Assembly: GCA_038231275.1 (NCBI GenBank)
Contig: JBBRLQ010000002.1
Location: 384,001-448,000, forward strand
Length of the DNA: 64,000 nt
Reading direction: 5' to 3'
From: Polyangiales bacterium
GTDB lineage: Bacteria; Myxococcota_A; Polyangia; Polyangiales; Polyangiaceae
Part shown: positions 36,460 through 44,419 of the stretch, piece after piece
How the letters are laid out: every line of letters begins with the position of its first letter
Position numbering within the stretch: position 1 is the first letter of the stretch
Notes under the pieces: generated by a model
The model's database searches: none
Told to the model about the DNA's origin: nothing
Seen by the model: the letters and a program-made list of their open reading frames with translations, nothing else
Made by a program: the position numbers and the translations under genes

Positions 36460-37779
36460 GTGCACGCTGAGGAAGGGCGCCGGCGAGACGGGCTCGGCGT
36501 CGACGTCGCGCTCCTGATGGCCTTGAAGGCCGCAGTGACCGTGGGAGTCCTCGCGCTCGGCTTCACGCACGTGTCCGACGATGATTACGCGCGCGTCGTG
36601 ATCGCGGAGTCGTTCGCGCACGCGCCAAAGCTCGATCCGACGGGGACGAGCTGGCTGCCCCTGCCCTTTTGGGTCTACGGCGGCGCGATGATGGCGCTCG
36701 GACGCTCGCTCGGAACCGCGAACGCGCTCGCGGGCGTCCTCGGCGTCGTCGCGACGGCGGCGCCGTACCTCGCCGCGCGGGCGGCCGGTGTGGCACGGCT
36801 CCCGGCGGTGCTCGGAGTCCTCTTGGCGACGACGCTGCCGTGGAGCGCGTGGACGGGCGCAGCGCCGATCCCGGAGATGCCCGCGGCGGCGCTGGTCGCG
36901 ACGGCGGCGCTCGGGTGCGCGTGTCCGCGCGTGCCGTGGTGGGCGGCGGCGTGCGCGTTCGCGGCGGCGCTCTCGCGGTACGAGGCGTGGCCGGTGTGCG
37001 CGATCGTCGCGTTGGCCGCGGTCGCGCGGGGGCGGCGTATTGGCTCGAAGTCGGGAGCATTGGGTGTCGCGGCGCTGGCGATGGCGGGGCCGGCCGTGTG
37101 GATCGCGTGGAACGCGCATGCGCATGGCGATCCGCTTCATTTCGTCGCACGGGTGAGCGCGTACCGGCAAGCGCTCGGCGCCGCGTCGATCCCGCTCGCC
37201 GAGAAGCTCCTCGGCAATCCGGTGGCGCTGATGCGCGGCGCGCCGTTCGTCGGGGTCCTCACGCTCGCGAGCCTCGGCGCGGTCGCGTGGCCCGACGTCC
37301 GCGCGCGCTGGGCGTGGCCGCTCGCGTGCGCCGTCGCGACGGTCGCGTTCCTCGTGTACGGCGATATTCGTGACGGCGCGCCCACACACCACCCAGAGCG
37401 CGCGCTCCTCGGCGCGTGGTGGATCCTCGTCGTGTTCGGCGCGGACGCGGTCGGCGCGTACGCCGCGCGCGCATGGCGGGCGGCGCCACGGGGGCTCGTG
37501 GTAGGTGCGGTCGCGGCGGGGGCCGCGGCTTTCCTTGGATTCTCCGTCGGCGGCTGGCCGGGCTATCCGGGGCGCGTGGGAGACGAGGATCGCGGCGCGC
37601 AGGTCGCGCGCGGTTACTTGCTGCGCGCCCGCGGCGCCGAGCATCTCGACGTGACGCCGTGCGCGTACGAGCACTTCGCGGTCCTCGCGGCGTACGGCGC
37701 TCCGGAGCGCGCGACGGTCGTGGCGTCTGCGCGCGCGCCGGTGGACGCGTCATGTCCGCGCGTCGTCGCTCGGCCCTGA
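36460..37779 (+). CDS. Multi-TM membrane protein, GT-C-like
   Basis: SDDDYARV acidic loop after TM1, WLPLPF and RYEAW motifs; many TM helices. Confidence 0.6.
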   Translation: MHAEEGRRRDGLGVDVALLMALKAAVTVGVLALGFTHVSDDDYARVVIAESFAHAPKLDPTGTSWLPLPFWVYGGAMMALGRSLGTANALAGVLGVVATAAPYLAARAAGVARLPAVLGVLLATTLPWSAWTGAAPIPEMPAAALVATAALGCACPRVPWWAAACAFAAALSRYEAWPVCAIVALAAVARGRRIGSKSGALGVAALAMAGPAVWIAWNAHAHGDPLHFVARVSAYRQALGAASIPLAEKLLGNPVALMRGAPFVGVLTLASLGAVAWPDVRARWAWPLACAVATVAFLVYGDIRDGAPTHHPERALLGAWWILVVFGADAVGAYAARAWRAAPRGLVVGAVAAGAAAFLGFSVGGWPGYPGRVGDEDRGAQVARGYLLRARGAEHLDVTPCAYEHFAVLAAYGAPERATVVASARAPVDASCPRVVARP

Positions 37780-39411
37780 CGGTTTCGGTGCTGCCGGGGG
37801 CTGCGCGTCGCTGGCAACGTTGGCCGGGAGCCGGACCAGCGTCCCCGCGAGATCGAAGAGCTCCTCGGTGTGCGCGACGACGGCGATCAGCTTGTGGGGG
37901 GAGAGCTCCTTCACGATGGCGCGGACGCGCGCGATTCCCGCCTGATCCAGGTTCGCGTCGGGCTCGTCGAGGAGGAGCACGGGCGCGTCGATCGCCAGTA
38001 CACGAGCGAGCGCGACGCGCTGGCGCTGCCCGACGGAGAGGGTGCCGATGCGCACGTCGAGCGGCGGCGTACCGGACGACGTGAGCGCGGCCCACACCTC
38101 GACGCTCTGGAGGACGGCGTGCATCGCGTCGTCGGTCGCGTCGGGAGCGAGGAGGTGAATGGCCTCGCGCACCGTCGCGCGATCCGAGAGGTACGGGCGC
38201 TGCGCGAGGTAGGCGATTCCGCGCCGCCAGGCGGCGCCGTCTAGCTCGCGGAGATCGCGGCCATCCACAAGAATTTTGCCCGCCGTCGGCTTCGCCAAGC
38301 CGAGCAGGAGCCGCAACGCCGTGCTCTTGCCTGCGCCGTTCGGGCCCGTGAGCACGAGCGGCGCCCCGCGACACCACGAGAACGATGCGGCCGACAGCGC
38401 GACCCGGCCGGCGCTCGTATACGCGAACGCCGCGCCTTCGGCGTCCACCCGCCGCGGTGCTTCCCCGAGGACGTGGCCCGTTCGCGCGTGCTCACCACGC
38501 GCGCCTTCGAGGATCTCCGCCAGCGCGCGCACACGCGTCCCCACGCGCACGACTTCGTGAAGCGCTCGAGCGAGACCGACGAACGACGGCAGCCCGGCAA
38601 CGACGAGCGCGGTCTCCAACGCCGTCCGCCCTTCGAGCATCTGCTTCCACGACGCTCCTGCCCAGATCCCGATGGCGAGCCCGAGCACCAACGCCAAAAT
38701 CGGCAGGCGACCCACCAACATGCTGAGCCGATCGGCGTGCAGCGACGCGCGACGCCACGCCGCGAGCCTCCCCTTCACGTCTCCTAGGAAGGCGACTTCG
38801 CGGCCGTTTGCGACCAGCTCGAGTCGGCTGGAGAGCATCGCGAGCAGATCGTCGACGACAGGCCCGTGCAATCGCCACGCGCGGTCCTCGTGCCGGCGTA
38901 CCGTTCGTCGGACGAGAATCGCAGCGCCGGCCGCCGCGCCGAGCCCAACCGCGGATGCGGCGACGACGCCGAATGGCTGCGCTGCGACGAACCACGCCAT
39001 GATGACGATCCCGACGAGCGCGTCGGCGACGAGGTCGGGCACGATGTCCGCGACGAATCTCGATCCGTAGACTGCCCCATCGAGCACCGCGCCTTGCGCG
39101 TCCTCGTCGTCGAGAGGGCTCGCGCGGAGGACGTCGCCGCCGAGGAGCGCGTGCGCGGTGGCCGCGTGGAGACGCTCCTGAACCGCGGAGCGCTGCGTGC
39201 TGCGCAAGATGGCGCGCGCGGCGTAAAGAGCCGCGAGGGCGCCGCTCGCGAGCAGCGCCGTCTCCCGTGTTCCGCGGACCAGCTCGAGCGCGAACGCGAT
39301 GGTCCCGGCGCGCTCGAGGACGAGGATCGCTGCGGAGACGGCGACGTCGCGAGTCGGCGAGGAGGCGGAGGCCGACCACACCGTCGAAAGCGGCCACGTG
39401 CGTCTGTGCAT
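37750..39411 (-). CDS. ABC exporter (TMD+NBD fusion), lasso cluster protein D
   Basis: GPNGAGKS, LSVGQRQR, LLLDEP and H-loop; last gene of the lasso operon; start uncertain. Confidence 0.8.
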   Translation of the reverse strand: MHRRTWPLSTVWSASASSPTRDVAVSAAILVLERAGTIAFALELVRGTRETALLASGALAALYAARAILRSTQRSAVQERLHAATAHALLGGDVLRASPLDDEDAQGAVLDGAVYGSRFVADIVPDLVADALVGIVIMAWFVAAQPFGVVAASAVGLGAAAGAAILVRRTVRRHEDRAWRLHGPVVDDLLAMLSSRLELVANGREVAFLGDVKGRLAAWRRASLHADRLSMLVGRLPILALVLGLAIGIWAGASWKQMLEGRTALETALVVAGLPSFVGLARALHEVVRVGTRVRALAEILEGARGEHARTGHVLGEAPRRVDAEGAAFAYTSAGRVALSAASFSWCRGAPLVLTGPNGAGKSTALRLLLGLAKPTAGKILVDGRDLRELDGAAWRRGIAYLAQRPYLSDRATVREAIHLLAPDATDDAMHAVLQSVEVWAALTSSGTPPLDVRIGTLSVGQRQRVALARVLAIDAPVLLLDEPDANLDQAGIARVRAIVKELSPHKLIAVVAHTEELFDLAGTLVRLPANVASDAQPPAAPKPSGPSDDART

Positions 39412-39433
39412 GGTTTCGCCGGAGACGCGGCCG

Positions 39434-39772
39434 TCAAAGCCGCGCCATCTCCTGGCCCACGACCTCTCCGTCGACCAACGGCTTACCCCGGAGCTCCACC
39501 CACGCGTGCGCTCGAACGGCCCCGACCCCCTCGGTTCGGACACCGATGACGACCTCGGCGTTCGGAAGACGCGCCGCAATGGCAAGGCTGCGGCTCAAGC
39601 AGGTTCCGACCGGCTTGAGCCGGGCGACGGCATCGCGCGCGGCCGCCTCGTCCAACCGGTGCGGAAGACGCGCCCCCAGCCGACCGATCAGCTCGTGCGC
39701 ATCCCGCGGCCTCATGAACGCGAGGGCGACGAGTGCCGCGAGGTTCAGCGCGTGGAGCGACAACATGGTCAC
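39434..39772 (-). CDS. Lasso peptide leader peptidase B2 (transglutaminase-like)
   Basis: CLSRSLA (Cys), VIGV and AHAWVE (His) motifs; GTGA overlap with B1. Confidence 0.85.
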   Translation of the reverse strand: MTMLSLHALNLAALVALAFMRPRDAHELIGRLGARLPHRLDEAAARDAVARLKPVGTCLSRSLAIAARLPNAEVVIGVRTEGVGAVRAHAWVELRGKPLVDGEVVGQEMARL

Positions 39773-40047
39773 ACGGGCTCGACCAGACCCCGTCGCACGA
39801 GCTCGTCGGTGAGCGACACCAAGTCCACGACGAGACGATCGAGCGTGACGTCGTGCTCGGGCTCCAGGCGCGCGGCGATCTGCTCCGGCGTCTCTCCCTG
39901 CACGAGACCGCTCCAGACACGCCCTCCCAGCTCGTCGAGGCCGAAGTACTCGCCGCGTTCGAGATCGAGCAGCACCATCTCGCCGTCGAACTCGCGAACG
40001 TGGATGCCCTTGGTCGGTCGCACGCGACCCGTTTTTCCGACGCTCAT
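39769..40047 (-). CDS. PqqD-family RiPP recognition element (lasso B1)
   Basis: EMVLLDLERGEYFGLDELGGRVW...GLV; 92 aa. Confidence 0.9.
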   Translation of the reverse strand: MSVGKTGRVRPTKGIHVREFDGEMVLLDLERGEYFGLDELGGRVWSGLVQGETPEQIAARLEPEHDVTLDRLVVDLVSLTDELVRRGLVEPV

Positions 40048-40832
40048 GACAATCCATCTTCCCCCGGCGCGAGCAGTGAGGCAACCAGCCTCGCCGATTC
40101 ACGCTGGCCATCCAGACCCTTCGGGCGCACGAGCTCGTAGACGGCCACGCGCTCGACGAGACGTCCGAGCTCGGACAGCTCCCACACCTGGGCAGCCGGC
40201 TCGTCCACCACCAGCCGAATCACGTTGGGGACGAGACGCGCGAGCGCGGCTTGCCCTCGCAGTCGCCGGAGCTCAGGCCGTTGCAACGTGGGTTCGAACG
40301 CGAGCGCGCACACGGCGTTCAACCCCTGGCGGGCATCGGCCATTCGCGCCGGCGCCACCGGCTTCTTCACGTCCGCTGCGCAGGGTTCAAGCGAGCCCTT
40401 CACGAGCCAATGCACGCGCTCGGTCGGGGTGACCCGGACGGCCGCACCGTCGAAATCGAGTGCCGTGGTGTCGTCCGCGACGAGGGAGGCGCCTTGGTCG
40501 GCGCAGAGCGTCGCCGCGAGCGTGGATTTGCCGGCGCCGCTTGGACCGAGGAGCGAGACGGCGCGACCACCTCTTGCGACGGCCGCGCCGTGCAGCGTCA
40601 ACCTCCCGCTCGCGTGACGGAGCAACGCCGGCACGAGGCTGGCACGTACCTTTGCGAGGTCGATCGCATCCGCGCCCGGCGACGGCTCGAAGGCGAGCTC
40701 GCGGCCGTCCCTGCTCGCGTAGAGAGTGGCCAAGCCCACGAACTCCGCGACGAGATCGTCGCCGCGCCGCCCCACACGAAACGCGAGCGCGCCATCCTCG
40801 TGCTGCTCGCTGATCCAGTGAACGGCGCTCAC
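40044..40832 (-). CDS. HPr-kinase-like P-loop kinase (lasso tailoring kinase)
   Basis: LHGAAV, GPSGAGKST and LVADD motifs; lies between cyclase and RRE with 4-nt overlaps. Confidence 0.82.
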   Translation of the reverse strand: MSAVHWISEQHEDGALAFRVGRRGDDLVAEFVGLATLYASRDGRELAFEPSPGADAIDLAKVRASLVPALLRHASGRLTLHGAAVARGGRAVSLLGPSGAGKSTLAATLCADQGASLVADDTTALDFDGAAVRVTPTERVHWLVKGSLEPCAADVKKPVAPARMADARQGLNAVCALAFEPTLQRPELRRLRGQAALARLVPNVIRLVVDEPAAQVWELSELGRLVERVAVYELVRPKGLDGQRESARLVASLLAPGEDGLS

Positions 40833-42553
40833 GCGGCCTCCAGGGCTTGCCGCGCAAACGCCTCGAGCGAGAGAAGCGGCCACAAGGAATGCCAGCCCTC
40901 GTGGTCGATCTCGCCTCGAATGAACGCGTCGAAGGACTGGCGGAATGCAGCGCTGCGAACGACGCCGAGGCCTTCGAGCGCGCGCAACGACGCGAGCTCG
41001 GGGAAGGCTCCGCGGCCCCCGATCGGCGCGTGCATGTCTTCGATCGCGGTCTCGAAGTCGGCCTTGTCGGTGCGCAGCCGCACCCGCTCGGGCACAAGGC
41101 CCGCGAATGCCTCTCGGAAGAGCCCGCGCAGGTACCCCCCCCGAAGGAGACTCTCGGCAGGCAGGCGGGCGACGAAGGAGATCAGCGCCTCGTCGCGAAA
41201 AGGAGTGCGCGTGGCGCATCCGGCCTGGGCGTCGATCGAGCACTGAGCTTCCGACACCTCGAGCGCCCACTTCGAGTCGCTGATGCGGGTGAAGAACTCC
41301 GTAGGCGTCCGCGGACCGAAATCTCCCACGGGCTCTGGCATGGGGCGCCGTAGCACCTCTCGAATGAGCGGGCCCGCCCAGGGGACGCCACGGGAGCCGA
41401 CGCGGCGGCGACGTACGACCCGGCGAATCTGGCGCGGCACGGCGTGCACCGCGATCGGGCGCAGTACGAACTCGTACAGGCGCTGCAAGCGCGAGCTCGT
41501 CCAGGGGACTCGCAGACGGACCGCCGCGCGCGCGGCGCTAACGAAATGGCCGCGGAGTGCCTGGAGCGCGAAGCAGCGTGGATCGCCGTCGAAGAGCTCG
41601 TCTCCGCCTGTGCCGGAGAGGAGCACGTCCGCCCCTTTCTCCCTGGCGAGGTCGAGGAAGCCGAGCTCCCACCCGCCCATCGGCGACGCGTAGGGTTGCC
41701 CGTCGACGACGAGCGACGGCCCCACGAATCGCGCGAAGGTCCCCGGCGAAACGCGCACCGGCAGGAGACCCAGCGCCTTCGCGAGCTCGTTCATGTAGGG
41801 CCGATCGTCGCCACGGCCCGCGAAGTGGAGGCTCAAGGCCAGTACCTCCTTTGCGGTCCCACCCCGCACGAGCGCGACGACCGCCGCCAGCAGCGCGCTC
41901 GAATCGACGCCGCCGCCGGCGAGGACTGCGACCCTTCCGAGGCCATCGATCGACCTGCGGACCGTCGCGAAGATCTCGTCGCGCAGCGCGTGGGCGAGCT
42001 CGTCGGGCTTGCCCGTGAGCGGTGACAGGCTTGGCGGAGGGAGCGTCGTCGACGTGACGGCGCCGCCGGCACCGACGCGGAGCAGCTGGCCGGACACCAA
42101 GCGCTGCACCCCTGTGAACGATGTCGCGCTCGGCCGTGCATGCATGTCGCCCGCGGCAAGCTCCGCCAAACGCATCGCGTCGAGCGCGGGTCGAGCGTCG
42201 AGAGCTCGCACGAGCACCGGTAGACGCGTGCTCGCAAGGACCACCGAGCCCTCTCGCGCCCAGTACATGGCTCGGCCGCCGACGCGACCGCGCGCAACGA
42301 GGAGTCCGCCCTCGTCGAGCTGCACTGCGGCGAAGCAACCGCGCGCGTGCCCTTCGCGCAAGTTGCCGTGAAACGGCCCCGCCGACGCGCACAGGAGCCT
42401 ATCGTCGATGGCGGCACGCTCCTCAGAAGGCCACACGGCGAGGCACGCCCCACCATCACGCAGCACGACAGGCTGCCCCGGCAGGGCGGCGCGCACTCGG
42501 TCGAGACGGGCAACCGCTTCCTCGCACCGAAGCGCGAGTGCGGCGAAGATCAT
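40829..42553 (-). CDS. Lasso cyclase (asparagine synthetase-like, protein C)
   Basis: GGGVDSS, LSGTGGDELF, RTPF.D and LRTDKADF motifs; no N-terminal Cys1 glutaminase; ATGA overlap with precursor. Confidence 0.88.
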   Translation of the reverse strand: MIFAALALRCEEAVARLDRVRAALPGQPVVLRDGGACLAVWPSEERAAIDDRLLCASAGPFHGNLREGHARGCFAAVQLDEGGLLVARGRVGGRAMYWAREGSVVLASTRLPVLVRALDARPALDAMRLAELAAGDMHARPSATSFTGVQRLVSGQLLRVGAGGAVTSTTLPPPSLSPLTGKPDELAHALRDEIFATVRRSIDGLGRVAVLAGGGVDSSALLAAVVALVRGGTAKEVLALSLHFAGRGDDRPYMNELAKALGLLPVRVSPGTFARFVGPSLVVDGQPYASPMGGWELGFLDLAREKGADVLLSGTGGDELFDGDPRCFALQALRGHFVSAARAAVRLRVPWTSSRLQRLYEFVLRPIAVHAVPRQIRRVVRRRRVGSRGVPWAGPLIREVLRRPMPEPVGDFGPRTPTEFFTRISDSKWALEVSEAQCSIDAQAGCATRTPFRDEALISFVARLPAESLLRGGYLRGLFREAFAGLVPERVRLRTDKADFETAIEDMHAPIGGRGAFPELASLRALEGLGVVRSAAFRQSFDAFIRGEIDHEGWHSLWPLLSLEAFARQALEAA

Positions 42554-42723
42554 CTCTTCTTGTTCTTGGCCGGGAAATCGGAGCGCGCGCCCCCGGTCCC
42601 GCCCAACGTGAGAGACCTCACCGAGCCCAGGTACCGGAGCACGGGCGCACGGTAGGGCCGGCGAACACCGCCCTCGGCCGGCTTCAGCGCCGCACTGCTC
42701 TCTTGCTCGTTCTTGTCGGTCAT
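42550..42723 (-). CDS. Lasso peptide precursor (57 aa; predicted core GGTGGARSDFPAKNKKR)
   Basis: Leader YRAPVL (YxxPxL) and LGSVRSLT; Thr at -2; core Gly1 with Asp9. Confidence 0.88.
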   Translation of the reverse strand: MTDKNEQESSAALKPAEGGVRRPYRAPVLRYLGSVRSLTLGGTGGARSDFPAKNKKR

Positions 42724-42796
42724 CCCCGGGAGCTCCGTTGTACCTATGTGTACTCCAACTGAGTGGCGCCGGGTACGACGAAAATTCACGGCGTCG

Positions 42797-43426
42797 CTAT
42801 TGTGCCGAAGGGAGCACAAGTGCGGGAATTTTCGCGACCTTTCCCTCGTGTGCACGGATGCCGTTCAAGACCAGATCCAGACCGGCGGCCCCTCGACGGG
42901 CGATGCGCGCGTCGCGGTTCAGGGGATGGTTGTGGAAGATGTAGGTCGTGAGCTGAAGGTCCTGAAGTAGCGAAGCCACCTCGTCGCAATCGAGCTCCGG
43001 ACGGAAAATCCCTTGGACGACCCCGAGCCGGAGAACCTCGACCACGTGGCGCGTCCCGTGCGCGCGCAGCTGTTGAAAGCGCTCCTGGCGCGACGGCAAC
43101 AGCTCGCTCGTCTTGCCGAAGAGCAGGTCCTGGACAAGCGGATGGCTCTCTAGATAGGCCATTCCCGCGAGGGACATTCGGACGAGCAACTCGTCGGCGG
43201 GGACCTTCGGGTCGATGAGCTTCGCCACCTCGCTCACCCACGAGGCGACCTCCCGCTCGACGACCTGAAAGAACAGATCCTCCTTGGACTCGCAGGCGAG
43301 GTAGACCGTCCCCTTCGCGACCCCGGCGCCCTTCGCGATGTCGTCCACGGAGGTCTTCTTGAAGCCCCATCGGGCGAACGCCTTGGCTGCCTCAACCAGA
43401 ATGCAGTCTTTTTTCGCGGTGTCCAT
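42797..43426 (-). CDS. TetR/AcrR family transcriptional regulator (alternative start 43456)
   Basis: GFKKTSVDDIAKGAGVAKGTVY...SKEDLF HTH. Confidence 0.9.
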   Translation of the reverse strand: MDTAKKDCILVEAAKAFARWGFKKTSVDDIAKGAGVAKGTVYLACESKEDLFFQVVEREVASWVSEVAKLIDPKVPADELLVRMSLAGMAYLESHPLVQDLLFGKTSELLPSRQERFQQLRAHGTRHVVEVLRLGVVQGIFRPELDCDEVASLLQDLQLTTYIFHNHPLNRDARIARRGAAGLDLVLNGIRAHEGKVAKIPALVLPSAQ

Positions 43427-43431
43427 GAGCG

Positions 43432-43456
43432 TTGACCGTTTGAACAAAGTAGTCAT
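43432..43456. promoter_or_regulatory. Candidate TetR operator (TGAC-N15-GTCA imperfect palindrome)
   Basis: TTGACCGTTTGAACAAAGTAGTCAT, AT-rich, at the TetR start. Confidence 0.4.
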
Positions 43457-43544
43457 TCTGCGGCCGCCGTCAACCCCGGCGTGGCCTTGCGTGGCGGACT
43501 CCGGGCAGGCACAACCATCCAGGCCCGGGAGAGAAGCAGCGAAA

Positions 43545-43988
43545 ATGAGCTTGCCTGGAACGACGCTCTGCACAAGCTGTGGCCTTTGCTGCTCCGGTGC
43601 GCTCTTTCCGCGAACCGTCCTGCGCCCGGAGGAAGTGACGTGGGCGCGCGAGAAGCGTCTGCTCTCCGTGATCGACGATCCCGTGGAACCGAGCTTTGCG
43701 CAGCCCTGCGGGCTGCTTCGAGACCGAAGGTGCACCGCGTACGAGGAACGCCCCCAGGTCTGTCGAACGTTTCGATGCAAGCTCTTGAAGCAATTCGAGG
43801 ACGGCGAGATCGGACTCGACATCGCGCTCGCGAAGGTGCGGCGTGTAGAAGTGCTCTTTGCGCGGCTGCCCCACGATGCGACGCCGACAACCGTTGATGC
43901 CTTGCTCGACCTGGGTGAGCTCGAGGCGCTCGCCGCACGGGATTTCCGGGAGTCGACGGAGACAAATTCGTCGAAGGCGCAGAGTTGA
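43545..43988 (+). CDS. YkgJ-family (CxxCxxCC) cysteine cluster protein, copy 1
   Basis: CTSCGLCC...PC..L...C..YEERP..C..F.C. Confidence 0.85.
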   Translation: MSLPGTTLCTSCGLCCSGALFPRTVLRPEEVTWAREKRLLSVIDDPVEPSFAQPCGLLRDRRCTAYEERPQVCRTFRCKLLKQFEDGEIGLDIALAKVRRVEVLFARLPHDATPTTVDALLDLGELEALAARDFRESTETNSSKAQS

Positions 43989-43990
43989 CG

Positions 43991-44419
43991 ATGGAGCCTG
44001 GAACGACGCTTTGCACGAGCTGCGGCCTCTGCTGCGCCGGCGCGATCTTCGCCACAGCGACCCTCGAGCCCGAGGAGGTCGAGTGGGCGCGAACCAAACG
44101 CTCCCTCAAGGTCATTCAGCGACCCGAAGGCCCCCGGTTCGAGCTGCCCTGCCATCTCCTCCACGAACGAAAGTGCTCGATCTACGCGGAGCGACGCCCC
44201 GACGTCTGCGGAGCCTTCAAGTGCAAGCTGCTCTCACGCCTCGAAGCGGGCGAGATCCCGCTCGACGCTGCCCTCGTAAAGGTGCGCCGCCTCGACGAGC
44301 TCTTCACGCGCGCGCGCGCGCACGCGACACCTACGACCGTCGAGGCGCTGCTCGATCTGGGTGAATTCGAGGCGCTCGTGACGCGCGATTTCCGCGAGCC
44401 GCTGCCGCCGCCAGCCTGA
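43991..44419 (+). CDS. YkgJ-family (CxxCxxCC) cysteine cluster protein, copy 2
   Basis: Same motifs; clear paralog of copy 1. Confidence 0.85.
   Translation: MEPGTTLCTSCGLCCAGAIFATATLEPEEVEWARTKRSLKVIQRPEGPRFELPCHLLHERKCSIYAERRPDVCGAFKCKLLSRLEAGEIPLDAALVKVRRLDELFTRARAHATPTTVEALLDLGEFEALVTRDFREPLPPPA

Follow-up and report, generated by a model that had tools for sequence, protein, structure and literature searches.

The locus described here raises the question of which residue an HPr-kinase-like enzyme would modify in a lasso peptide cluster whose precursor does not end in Ser. Lasso peptides constitute a very large and well-mined class of RiPPs; their scaffolds are stable, their activities include antibiotic action and receptor binding, and enzymes that tailor them are in demand for engineering. 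We analysed a 64-kb window (the whole stretch of DNA under study, 64,000 nt) from an uncultured myxobacterium, and propose that a seven-gene unit, TetR-A-C-K-B1-B2-D, is responsible for the synthesis and export of a single class II lasso peptide, with the kinase K acting on Thr3 of the ring. We place the probability of this reading at roughly 0.55.

Organization of the gene cluster

The open reading frames of the window include six co-oriented genes, A, C, K, B1, B2 and D, at 37750-42723 on the minus strand. A TetR-family gene lies directly upstream of the precursor gene in the same orientation, at a distance of 73 nt. The features are as follows.

42797..43456, minus strand: TetR-family regulator (TetR_N, 6.4e-12); the start is the first in-frame ATG
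42550..42723, minus strand: precursor A, 57 aa, ATG start; leader 42604-42723 (40 aa), core 42553-42603 (17 aa), stop 42550-42552
40829..42553, minus strand: lasso cyclase C, 574 aa, Asn-synthetase homologue (PF00733, Asn_synthase, 2.8e-32)
40044..40832, minus strand: HPr-kinase-like protein K, 262 aa, GTG start (TIGR04352, HprK_rel_A, 6e-10; PF07475, Hpr_kinase_C, 2e-4)
39769..40047, minus strand: B1, PqqD-type RiPP recognition element (RRE), 92 aa (PF05402, PqqD, 1e-13)
39434..39772, minus strand: B2, transglutaminase-like leader peptidase, 112 aa, GTG start (PF13471, Transglut_core3, 7.9e-10)
37750..39411, minus strand: D, fused permease/ATPase ABC exporter, 553 aa (ABC_tran, 3.2e-30)

A preliminary description of this DNA had claimed six co-oriented genes with these domains and had recognized lasso RiPP logic in them. 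Both claims held up, as the open reading frames and domain searches returned the genes at these positions and every essential lasso gene is present with the right domain. The 4-nt overlaps that it had described between the first five genes were seen at all four junctions when these were read base by base (ATGA at A/C and K/B1, GTGA at C/K and B1/B2); B2 and D are separated by a gap of 22 nt. As read from these junctions, genes A to B2 are translationally coupled. From the gene content we conclude that 37750-42723 is a complete, conserved lasso RiPP cluster in which the B protein is split and a kinase is present. As lasso clusters go it is unremarkable, save for a kinase that is barred from a C-terminal Ser. 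A terminator scan gave 3 terminator-like sites against 2.9 expected. A search for sequencing runs carrying the cluster found no RNA run; the DNA consisted of one probable source sample and one run with a small share.

The precursor and its predicted core

The precursor leader fits the pattern YxxPxLx3Gx5Tx exactly, with Thr at position −2, which bears out the 57-aa precursor and leader motif proposed earlier. This pattern occurs once in the six frames of the window, and the NCBIfam model lasso_leader_L3 scored 17.4 bits with the precursor, slightly under its cut-off of 19. The predicted core, GGTGGARSDFPAKNKKR, is 17 aa long and contains no Cys; the string was not found in the literature text that was searched. 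The leader pattern and a leader profile built from pattern matches each hit the window once, and we therefore rejected the possibility that it hides another precursor, one ending in Ser.

Six orthologous precursors, all metagenomic, completed a set of seven sequences, with 60-82% identity to that of the window. The leader motif for RRE binding and cleavage, including Thr(−2), was kept in all seven, as were core residues G1, G2, T3, G5, R7 and D9 and leader residues T2, S34, S37 and T39. Thr3 is the sole invariant hydroxyl residue of the core; Ser8 is present in one of the seven, the window's own copy. A C-terminal Ser was found in 0/7, the last residue being R, Q or P. [quoted passage not shown] The 9-membered ring and 8-residue tail would leave scant room for a loop plus plugs, and stable threading is not assured.

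Proteins for processing, cyclization and export

In addition to its Asn_synthase domain, C scored low with the macrolactam and lasso cyclase models of NCBIfam (70-82 bits for the latter, whose cut-offs are 300-525), and a phmmer search of PDB sequences at E<=0.001 returned 0 matches. The protein begins MIF... and lacks Cys2, the residue that is the nucleophile of glutamine-hydrolysing AsnB. B1 matched the lasso PqqD models at 6e-12 and 2e-11. It shows the strongest conservation in the cluster, with 92% identity to its counterpart in the related genome G001 and a dN/dS of 0.04. B2 scored 45.3 bits with the NCBIfam lasso B2 model NF033537, over the cut-off of 33, and is the sole B2 match within the 9.28-Mb genome. 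Its residues Cys58 and His89 are invariant in 8/8 aligned B2 proteins. An alternative B2 start exists, an ATG at 39766, which would replace the overlap with B1 by a 2-nt gap. Residues 24-528 of D align full-length to a CydD-type model (1.3e-48); D is the predicted exporter of the product and probably also gives self-protection.

Conservation of the locus

Three other genomes carry the cluster at the same chromosomal position, and the order tpiA-secG-membrane gene followed by D-B2-B1-K-C-A-TetR is common to G001, G002 and G174, the last from a second genus. As the same genes stand in the same order in related genomes, the features of the cluster are far beyond chance. The TetR gene adjoins the cluster in both G001 (88% identity) and G174 (58%), and its product is the probable cluster regulator, a role that we infer. 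Comparison with the G001 orthologues yielded dN/dS values of 0.04-0.35 over all six genes (0.35 for A and 0.27 for K), and all six are under purifying selection. Horizontal transfer was considered as an origin and rejected, because the GC content of the cluster (0.69-0.73) resembles that of its flanks and synteny at the locus extends across genera.

The kinase K

Both family matches of K listed above fall under curated cut-offs. A profile search matched K to HprK/P (1ko7) at 1e-7, with the His, the P-loop and the Asp-Asp pair aligned. The AF2 model of K has a pLDDT of 92.6, and its top Foldseek matches are HprK/P and PEPCK; on this model, K adopts the HprK/P fold. Residues H81, K102, D120 and D121 were kept in 11/11 relatives and in 150-151 of the 151 sequences of the clade. 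The available text of the respective papers reports the same His/Lys/Asp/Asp residues as essential in PadeK/ThcoK (PMC9266682) and in BsfK (PMC10368454).

Kinases were surveyed by a genome search, as a related-locus search with K gave one locus; the K family extends over 141 clusters at 50% identity and E<=1e-30. In a tree built without PadeK, ThcoK, SyanK, PsmK, BsfK and LppK, K falls within a 15-member Myxococcota clade (SH-aLRT 99), and the deep branches are weak (79). The kinases of Ile/Val(−2) loci, which are bsf-like with Ser/Thr3, group apart from K's clade in the same tree, from which BsfK itself is absent. Cyclase-kinase fusions also occur: in P0121 the Asn_synthase domain spans 193-556 and the kinase 590-846, and the fusion at L054 5052-7655 is a single open frame. 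Such natural fusions are a physical link between K and the peptide machinery, and we consider it likely that K phosphorylates the precursor. A predicted complex of K, B1, precursor and ATP scored 0.86 and was discarded, as the score was still 0.85 with K swapped for an unrelated protein and the signal came from the retained chain.

Comparison with known systems

Published systems are compared here as they appear in the available portions of the cited papers. The gene order A-C-K-B1-B2-D had been described as matching that of paeninodin-type clusters. It resembles that order but is not the same, since the paeninodin cluster of Paenibacillus dendritiformis C454 (padeCAKB1B2D) and the firmicute type are published as C-A-K-B1-B2-D (PMC5067487). 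The product of the paeninodin and ThcoK/PsmK firmicute clusters is of class II, as predicted here. These clusters share with the present one the split B1/B2, an ABC exporter and an HPr-kinase-like enzyme with His-Lys-Asp-Asp, and in paeninodin, too, the kinase gene stands immediately before B1-B2-D. Paeninodin-type kinases (PadeK, ThcoK and PsmK) act on a C-terminal Ser only, whereas 0/7 of the present precursors end in Ser, an absence that the preliminary description had overlooked. The paeninodin analogy therefore fails for the chemistry, and K, as judged from the precursor sequences, cannot act on the C-terminal Ser that is the acceptor of paeninodin-type lasso kinases. The SyanK type of Sphingobium yanoikuyae ATCC 51230 is likewise Gram-negative and has an HprK-like kinase with a split B, but differs in the polyphosphorylation of its C-terminal Ser and in its order, A-B1-B2-C-K-D, that of the proteobacterial kinase type (PMC5067487). 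The actinobacterial lariatin, sviceucin and streptomonomicin clusters have the same core-gene order as the present cluster, A-C-B1-B2-D (PMC5067487), but belong to a different phylum and, as described there, lack a kinase gene at the C/B1 junction.

The bsf cluster (BsfA/K/B1/B2/C/D/N) comes from Bradymonas sediminis FA350, of the same broad group, formerly Deltaproteobacteria (PMC10368454, Front Microbiol 2023). Like the present one, its precursor has no C-terminal Ser and bears a hydroxyl group on the third core residue. BsfK has the same catalytic residues as K and works on the leader-bearing linear precursor; its target is Ser3 of the BsfA core, an S3T variant is also accepted, the leader is required and BsfB1 stimulates the reaction (PMC10368454). 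The two systems differ in that bsf has Ile(−2), Ser3 and a nucleotidyltransferase gene, whereas the present cluster has Thr(−2) in 7/7 precursors and Thr3; domain searches with 10 ORFs from 36460-44419 returned no bsfN-like nucleotidyltransferase domain. The LppA/K/B/S/D/N systems of Bacillota, which make linear polyphosphorylated peptides, also use an RRE-dependent HprK-like kinase directed at residue 3 of the core (PMC13381572, Nat Commun 2026). LppK phosphorylates S3 of its own core and refuses S3T. Unlike the present cluster, these systems are described as having no cyclase and no B2, with signal-peptidase-like removal of the leader and linear products (PMC13381572).

The residue that K would phosphorylate

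As BsfK and LppK both phosphorylate core residue 3, Thr3 is the most likely target of K, and by analogy with these two enzymes we give it about an even chance of being the acceptor site. Within K's clade, Ser or Thr occupies core position 3 in 5/12 precursors, positions 3-5 in 11/12 and the ring in 12/12; one of the 12 ends in Ser. A fixed 'residue 3' rule is thus not valid across this clade. Gly/Ser/Thr-rich rings are common among lasso peptides, so that a ring Ser or Thr by itself carries little weight.

In the pathway that we favour, B1 would bind the 57-aa precursor through its YxxPxL...G.....T leader, and K, with ATP, would phosphorylate a ring residue of the still-linear peptide, likeliest Thr3 and possibly more than once. 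The Cys58/His89 peptidase B2 would cleave after Leu(−1). C would activate the side chain of Asp9 and link it to the amine of Gly1, and the basic tail of GGTGGARSDFPAKNKKR, 8 residues long, would thread the resulting 9-residue macrolactam. D would export the product, with transcription controlled by TetR.

The same lasso pathway could instead operate with K directed at a residue other than Thr3, either ring Ser8 or Ser34, Ser37 or Thr39 of the leader. A leader phosphate would be a transient processing signal only, lost together with the leader. Such a target would fit the variable position of the ring Ser/Thr in K's clade, the separation of this clade from the bsf-like kinases, and the invariance of leader residues T2, S34, S37 and T39. 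These leader residues are already explained, however, by RRE binding and by recognition of Thr(−2) by B2, and the four characterised kinase systems, in the available literature, act on the core and not the leader. Ser8, for its part, is confined to a single orthologue. We therefore regard a target other than Thr3 as unlikely.

Another explanation is that the lasso peptide is unphosphorylated, K being non-catalytic, serving in some other role (scaffold, regulation or immunity), or phosphorylating a protein and not a peptide. The missing C-terminal Ser and the kinase-family matches under curated cut-offs are consistent with this explanation, and the available description of paeninodin reports both phosphorylated and unphosphorylated products on expression, with a lasso peptide still formed after padeK deletion. 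Against it stand the near-complete conservation of the four catalytic residues, the translational coupling of K between C and B1 together with its dN/dS, and the existence of cyclase-kinase fusions; moreover, the characterised HprK-like proteins of RiPP clusters are peptide kinases in the portions of the literature covered. An unphosphorylated product is accordingly rather improbable. All frames are intact, selection has acted on all six genes, the precursor motif is invariant and the locus has been retained across genera, all of which makes a silent or decaying relic, with a product no longer made, highly improbable. The bsf cluster is reported to be silent under laboratory conditions (PMC10368454), and a promoter scan of the present cluster returned 0 promoter-like sites, but myxobacterial promoter types lie outside its range.

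Scope of the C-terminal Ser rule

Among the kinase-linked lasso precursors found in Myxococcota, 8 of 37 end in Ser, indicating that the textbook 'C-terminal Ser' rule misses most kinase-bearing clusters in the phylum. No isolated lasso peptide from classical myxobacteria was found in the literature searched, the exception, so far as its available text goes, being the Bradymonas precursor work (PMC10368454). The present cluster is a compact target of ~5 kb from classical myxobacteria, a lineage known for natural products. Phosphorylation of Thr3, if true, would mean that ring phosphorylation, with one in vitro case to date, also occurs in a mature lasso peptide, and it would provide a kinase usable on canonical Thr(−2) leaders.

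We tentatively suggest that K may belong to a third specificity class of lasso kinases, with canonical Thr(−2) precursors, a Ser/Thr at ring positions 3-5 and, in some members, fusion to the cyclase. Such a class would differ both from the kinases of C-terminal Ser and from those of Ser3 in Ile(−2) precursors, and the product in this case would be a strongly basic lasso peptide with a ring phosphothreonine. For the lasso peptide we compute a monoisotopic mass of 1727.918 Da, and for its monophosphorylated form one of 1807.884 Da.

Organization of the gene cluster

The genome holding the window (9.28 Mb, 164 contigs, 94% complete) is that of a myxobacterium, as the preliminary description had suspected from sequence. 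Six co-oriented ORFs were identified on the minus strand between positions 37750 and 42723.

Genes of the cluster and its upstream neighbour (window coordinates)
42797–43456, minus, TetR-family gene, 73 nt upstream of A and on the same strand
42550–42723, minus, A, precursor, 57 aa
40829–42553, minus, C, Asn-synthetase-like cyclase, 574 aa
40044–40832, minus, K, HPr-kinase-like, 262 aa, GTG start
39769–40047, minus, B1, PqqD RRE, 92 aa
39434–39772, minus, B2, peptidase, 112 aa, GTG start
37750–39411, minus, D, ABC exporter, 553 aa

Base-by-base reading gave ATGA at the A/C and K/B1 junctions and GTGA at the C/K and B1/B2 junctions, in exact agreement with the 4-nt overlaps previously noted for the first five of the six co-oriented genes. 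The gap between B2 and D is 22 nt. The TetR stop codon, just upstream of A, is spanned by an inverted repeat of 11 nt at 42795–42824, with an 8-nt spacer and 82% complementarity, which may serve as a terminator stem or as an operator.

The match to PF00733 (2.8e-32) identifies C as an asparagine-synthase homologue; its N-terminus reads MIF, and therefore the glutaminase Cys is absent. B1 consists of a PqqD domain (1e-13) and is also matched by lasso-specific PqqD models. B2 matched Transglut_core3 (7.9e-10) and passed the NCBIfam lasso B2 cut-off (45.3 versus 33 bits); its Cys58 and His89 were invariant in all eight aligned relatives, and no other lasso B2 match was found in the whole genome. 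A domain scan identified D as a fused permease/ATPase exporter. Matches of K to HprK-related kinase A (6e-10) and Hpr_kinase_C (2e-4) were both under the curated cut-offs.

Precursor and predicted ring

The leader is an exact fit to YxxPxLx3Gx5Tx, with Thr at −2, and a six-frame translation of the 64-kb window contains this pattern once. Cleavage after Leu(−1) is predicted to release a core of 17 residues, GGTGGARSDFPAKNKKR. When 5.8 billion proteins were searched, seven precursors were obtained from seven candidates, including that of the window. Their alignment showed that the leader is nearly invariant from Arg22 to Leu40, that G1, G2, T3, G5, R7 and D9 of the core are invariant, and that the tail is variable. 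Invariance of Gly1 and Asp9 supports a putative nine-membered Gly1–Asp9 macrolactam, and the peptide contains no Cys and is therefore class II; both assignments had been proposed earlier and hold. Every testable defining feature of a class II lasso cluster was found. We estimate a probability of about 0.85 that it encodes a lasso peptide with the predicted Gly1–Asp9 ring. Four strings from this precursor family were not found in the literature searched; the core sequence is new in detail.

Conservation of the locus

Two genomes of the same genus share the gene content and gene order of the cluster, with proteins 69–92% identical (G001, locus L012) and 67–89% identical (G002, locus L001, where the sequence ends within C) to those of the window. 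The flanks are also the same, with tpiA, secG and the gene of a 439-aa membrane protein bordering one end of the cluster, and TetR and CxxCxxCC-domain genes bordering the opposite end. Comparison with G001 gave dN/dS values of 0.35 (A), 0.17 (C), 0.27 (K), 0.04 (B1), 0.10 (B2) and 0.23 (D), which are rough because dS was 0.4–1.2. GC content of the cluster (0.69–0.73) is similar to that of its surroundings. From the common order and flanks, the low dN/dS and the flank-like GC, we conclude that the cluster is old, has been inherited vertically and is constrained by purifying selection, with a core peptide that diversifies. In a genome of another genus (G174), the orthologous locus (L061, G174:C3:1828000-1843000) also has TetR, the membrane gene, secG and tpiA as flanks and encodes a quite different core of 15 aa; the core has diversified, and its chromosomal site has stayed fixed.

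The polytopic 439-aa membrane protein gene (36460–37779, plus strand) converges on D, with the 3′ ends overlapping by 30 nt. Pfam and NCBIfam scans of this protein gave no match; its position beside the cluster is kept in G001 (71% identity), G002 (73%) and G174 (49%). Divergent from the TetR gene are two adjacent paralogous genes (43338–43988 and 43985–44419, both plus strand) for a CxxCxxCC putative zinc/iron-chelating domain (PF03692, 2.5e-8 and 4.8e-9), one copy of which is also found beside the G001 cluster.

Fold and active site of the kinase

A profile built from 11 relatives matched HprK/P structures (1ko7, 1e-7), and His81, the P-loop with Lys102 and Asp120–Asp121 aligned onto HprK/P catalytic elements. 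The AlphaFold2 model of K was confident (pLDDT 92.6), with HprK/P (3tqf, 1kkl) and PEP carboxykinases as best Foldseek matches. A scan of 1.84 billion representatives matched 141 proteins at E ≤ 1e-30; the number rose to 568 at 1e-10 and to 8771 at 0.001. When the query was aligned with its 150 best matches, Lys102, Asp120 and Asp121 were present in 151/151 and His81 in 150/151, the remaining one being a gap. These His/Lys/Asp/Asp residues are reported as essential for PadeK and ThcoK (PMC9266682) and for BsfK (PMC10368454). Cyclase–kinase fusions, in which Asn_synthase precedes the kinase, were found as a single open frame of 868 aa (L054 5052–7655, genome G249) and as the 846-aa protein P0121; they are a strong hint that K acts within the peptide-maturation complex.

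Survey of kinases and acceptor residues

Precursors encoded together with a kinase have been described as sharing a conserved C-terminal Ser, the phosphate acceptor of the paeninodin-type kinases; it was found in none of the seven orthologous precursors. The kinase profile was run against 401 Myxococcota genomes, of which 60 matched at E ≤ 1e-15. From these, 50 loci were fetched, in which kinases and precursors were located by the kinase profile, a leader regular expression and a leader profile. Of the 51 kinases, 37 had a precursor next to them; for the other 14, some of them on short contigs, none was found. A few accepted assignments (e.g. L085, L060) are doubtful, and the rows are related genomes rather than independent samples. 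The quick maximum-likelihood kinase tree carries SH-aLRT support only, is weak in its deep branches (79) and covers the kinases of these Myxococcota loci.

K belongs to a clade of 15 kinases (group a, support 99) with loci mostly in A-C-K-B1(-B2) order. The last residues of its 12 precursors are R, R, P, M, M, S, L, M, M, M, P and R, so that one ends in Ser. This distinct, fairly large clade is new in detail. Five of the 12 precursors end in Met (L014, L052, L054, L055, L058), and several tails are Met-rich. Two close relatives of K (L056 in G115, L057 in G406) adjoin B2 and B1; a cyclase match and a credible precursor were not found in the 11.5–14.5 kb fetched, which gave only chance-like pattern matches, and these loci may be cyclase-less or rearranged variants.

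Group b (14 kinases, support 87) has Ile/Val at −2 and Ser/Thr at position 3 in 8/8 recognisable precursors and a C-terminal Ser in 0/8, features reported for the Bradymonadales bsf family (PMC10368454). These precursors lie beside HprK-like kinases at L070, L076, L077, L079, L080, L084, L087 and L090, in genomes of family f29. Scattered kinases with Thr(−2) precursors make up group c, in which 7/17 precursors end in Ser.

Proposed maturation and alternatives

BsfK of Bradymonas sediminis is reported to phosphorylate core Ser3 of BsfA, a ring residue, accepting S3T and refusing S3Y. It was inactive on leaderless core, was strongly stimulated by BsfB1 and depended on H148, G163, K169, S170, D186 and D187; the last residue of BsfA is Asp (PMC10368454). 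LppK, from cyclase-less Bacillota clusters, also phosphorylates core S3 (PMC13381572). As both act on core residue 3, this residue is a recurrent acceptor of RRE-guided HprK-like kinases, and this prior art would resolve most of the acceptor puzzle.

We infer the following order of reactions. B1 would bind the precursor leader, and K, in contact with B1 and C or close to them, would phosphorylate Thr3 of the linear precursor. B2 would then remove the leader, C would close Gly1–Asp9 around the basic, presumably threaded tail, and D would export the product, with TetR gating expression.

Phosphorylation of the peptide by K is likely, and the odds that Thr3 is the site are roughly even. Thr3 is the sole invariant hydroxyl residue of the core in the seven orthologues; in group a, Ser/Thr occupies position 3 in 5/12 precursors, positions 3–5 in 11/12 and the ring in 12/12. 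We consider it unlikely that K acts on another acceptor. Slightly less probable still is that the peptide is not phosphorylated at all, given domain matches of K under curated cut-offs on one side and its conserved catalytic residues on the other. A silent relic is very improbable for genes with such low dN/dS; the bsf cluster itself is described as silent, and a mature lasso peptide is not among the results in the sections of that report cited here (PMC10368454).

Comparison with known systems

The A-C-K-B1-B2-D order had been said to match paeninodin-type clusters; however, the published order is C-A-K-B1-B2-D, and the window's precursor also lacks the C-terminal Ser of that type. Actinobacterial A-C-B1-B2-D clusters have the same core gene order, into which K is inserted here. 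The precursor resembles that of the bsf type in its hydroxyl at core position 3 and in having no C-terminal Ser, but it lacks Ile/Val(−2), a nucleotidyltransferase gene was not found among the 10 ORFs scanned at the cluster, and K groups apart from the kinases of the Ile/Val(−2) loci in the survey tree, whose deep branches are weak. As bsf features are thus partly present and partly absent, the cluster probably works like bsf by ring phosphorylation, outside the bsf family. Thousands of predicted lasso clusters, kinase-bearing ones among them, and a precedent for ring phosphorylation are already known. Judged by titles and abstract openings, the literature searched listed no lasso peptide that had been isolated from a classical myxobacterium; the myxobacterial lineage of the cluster is new in detail.
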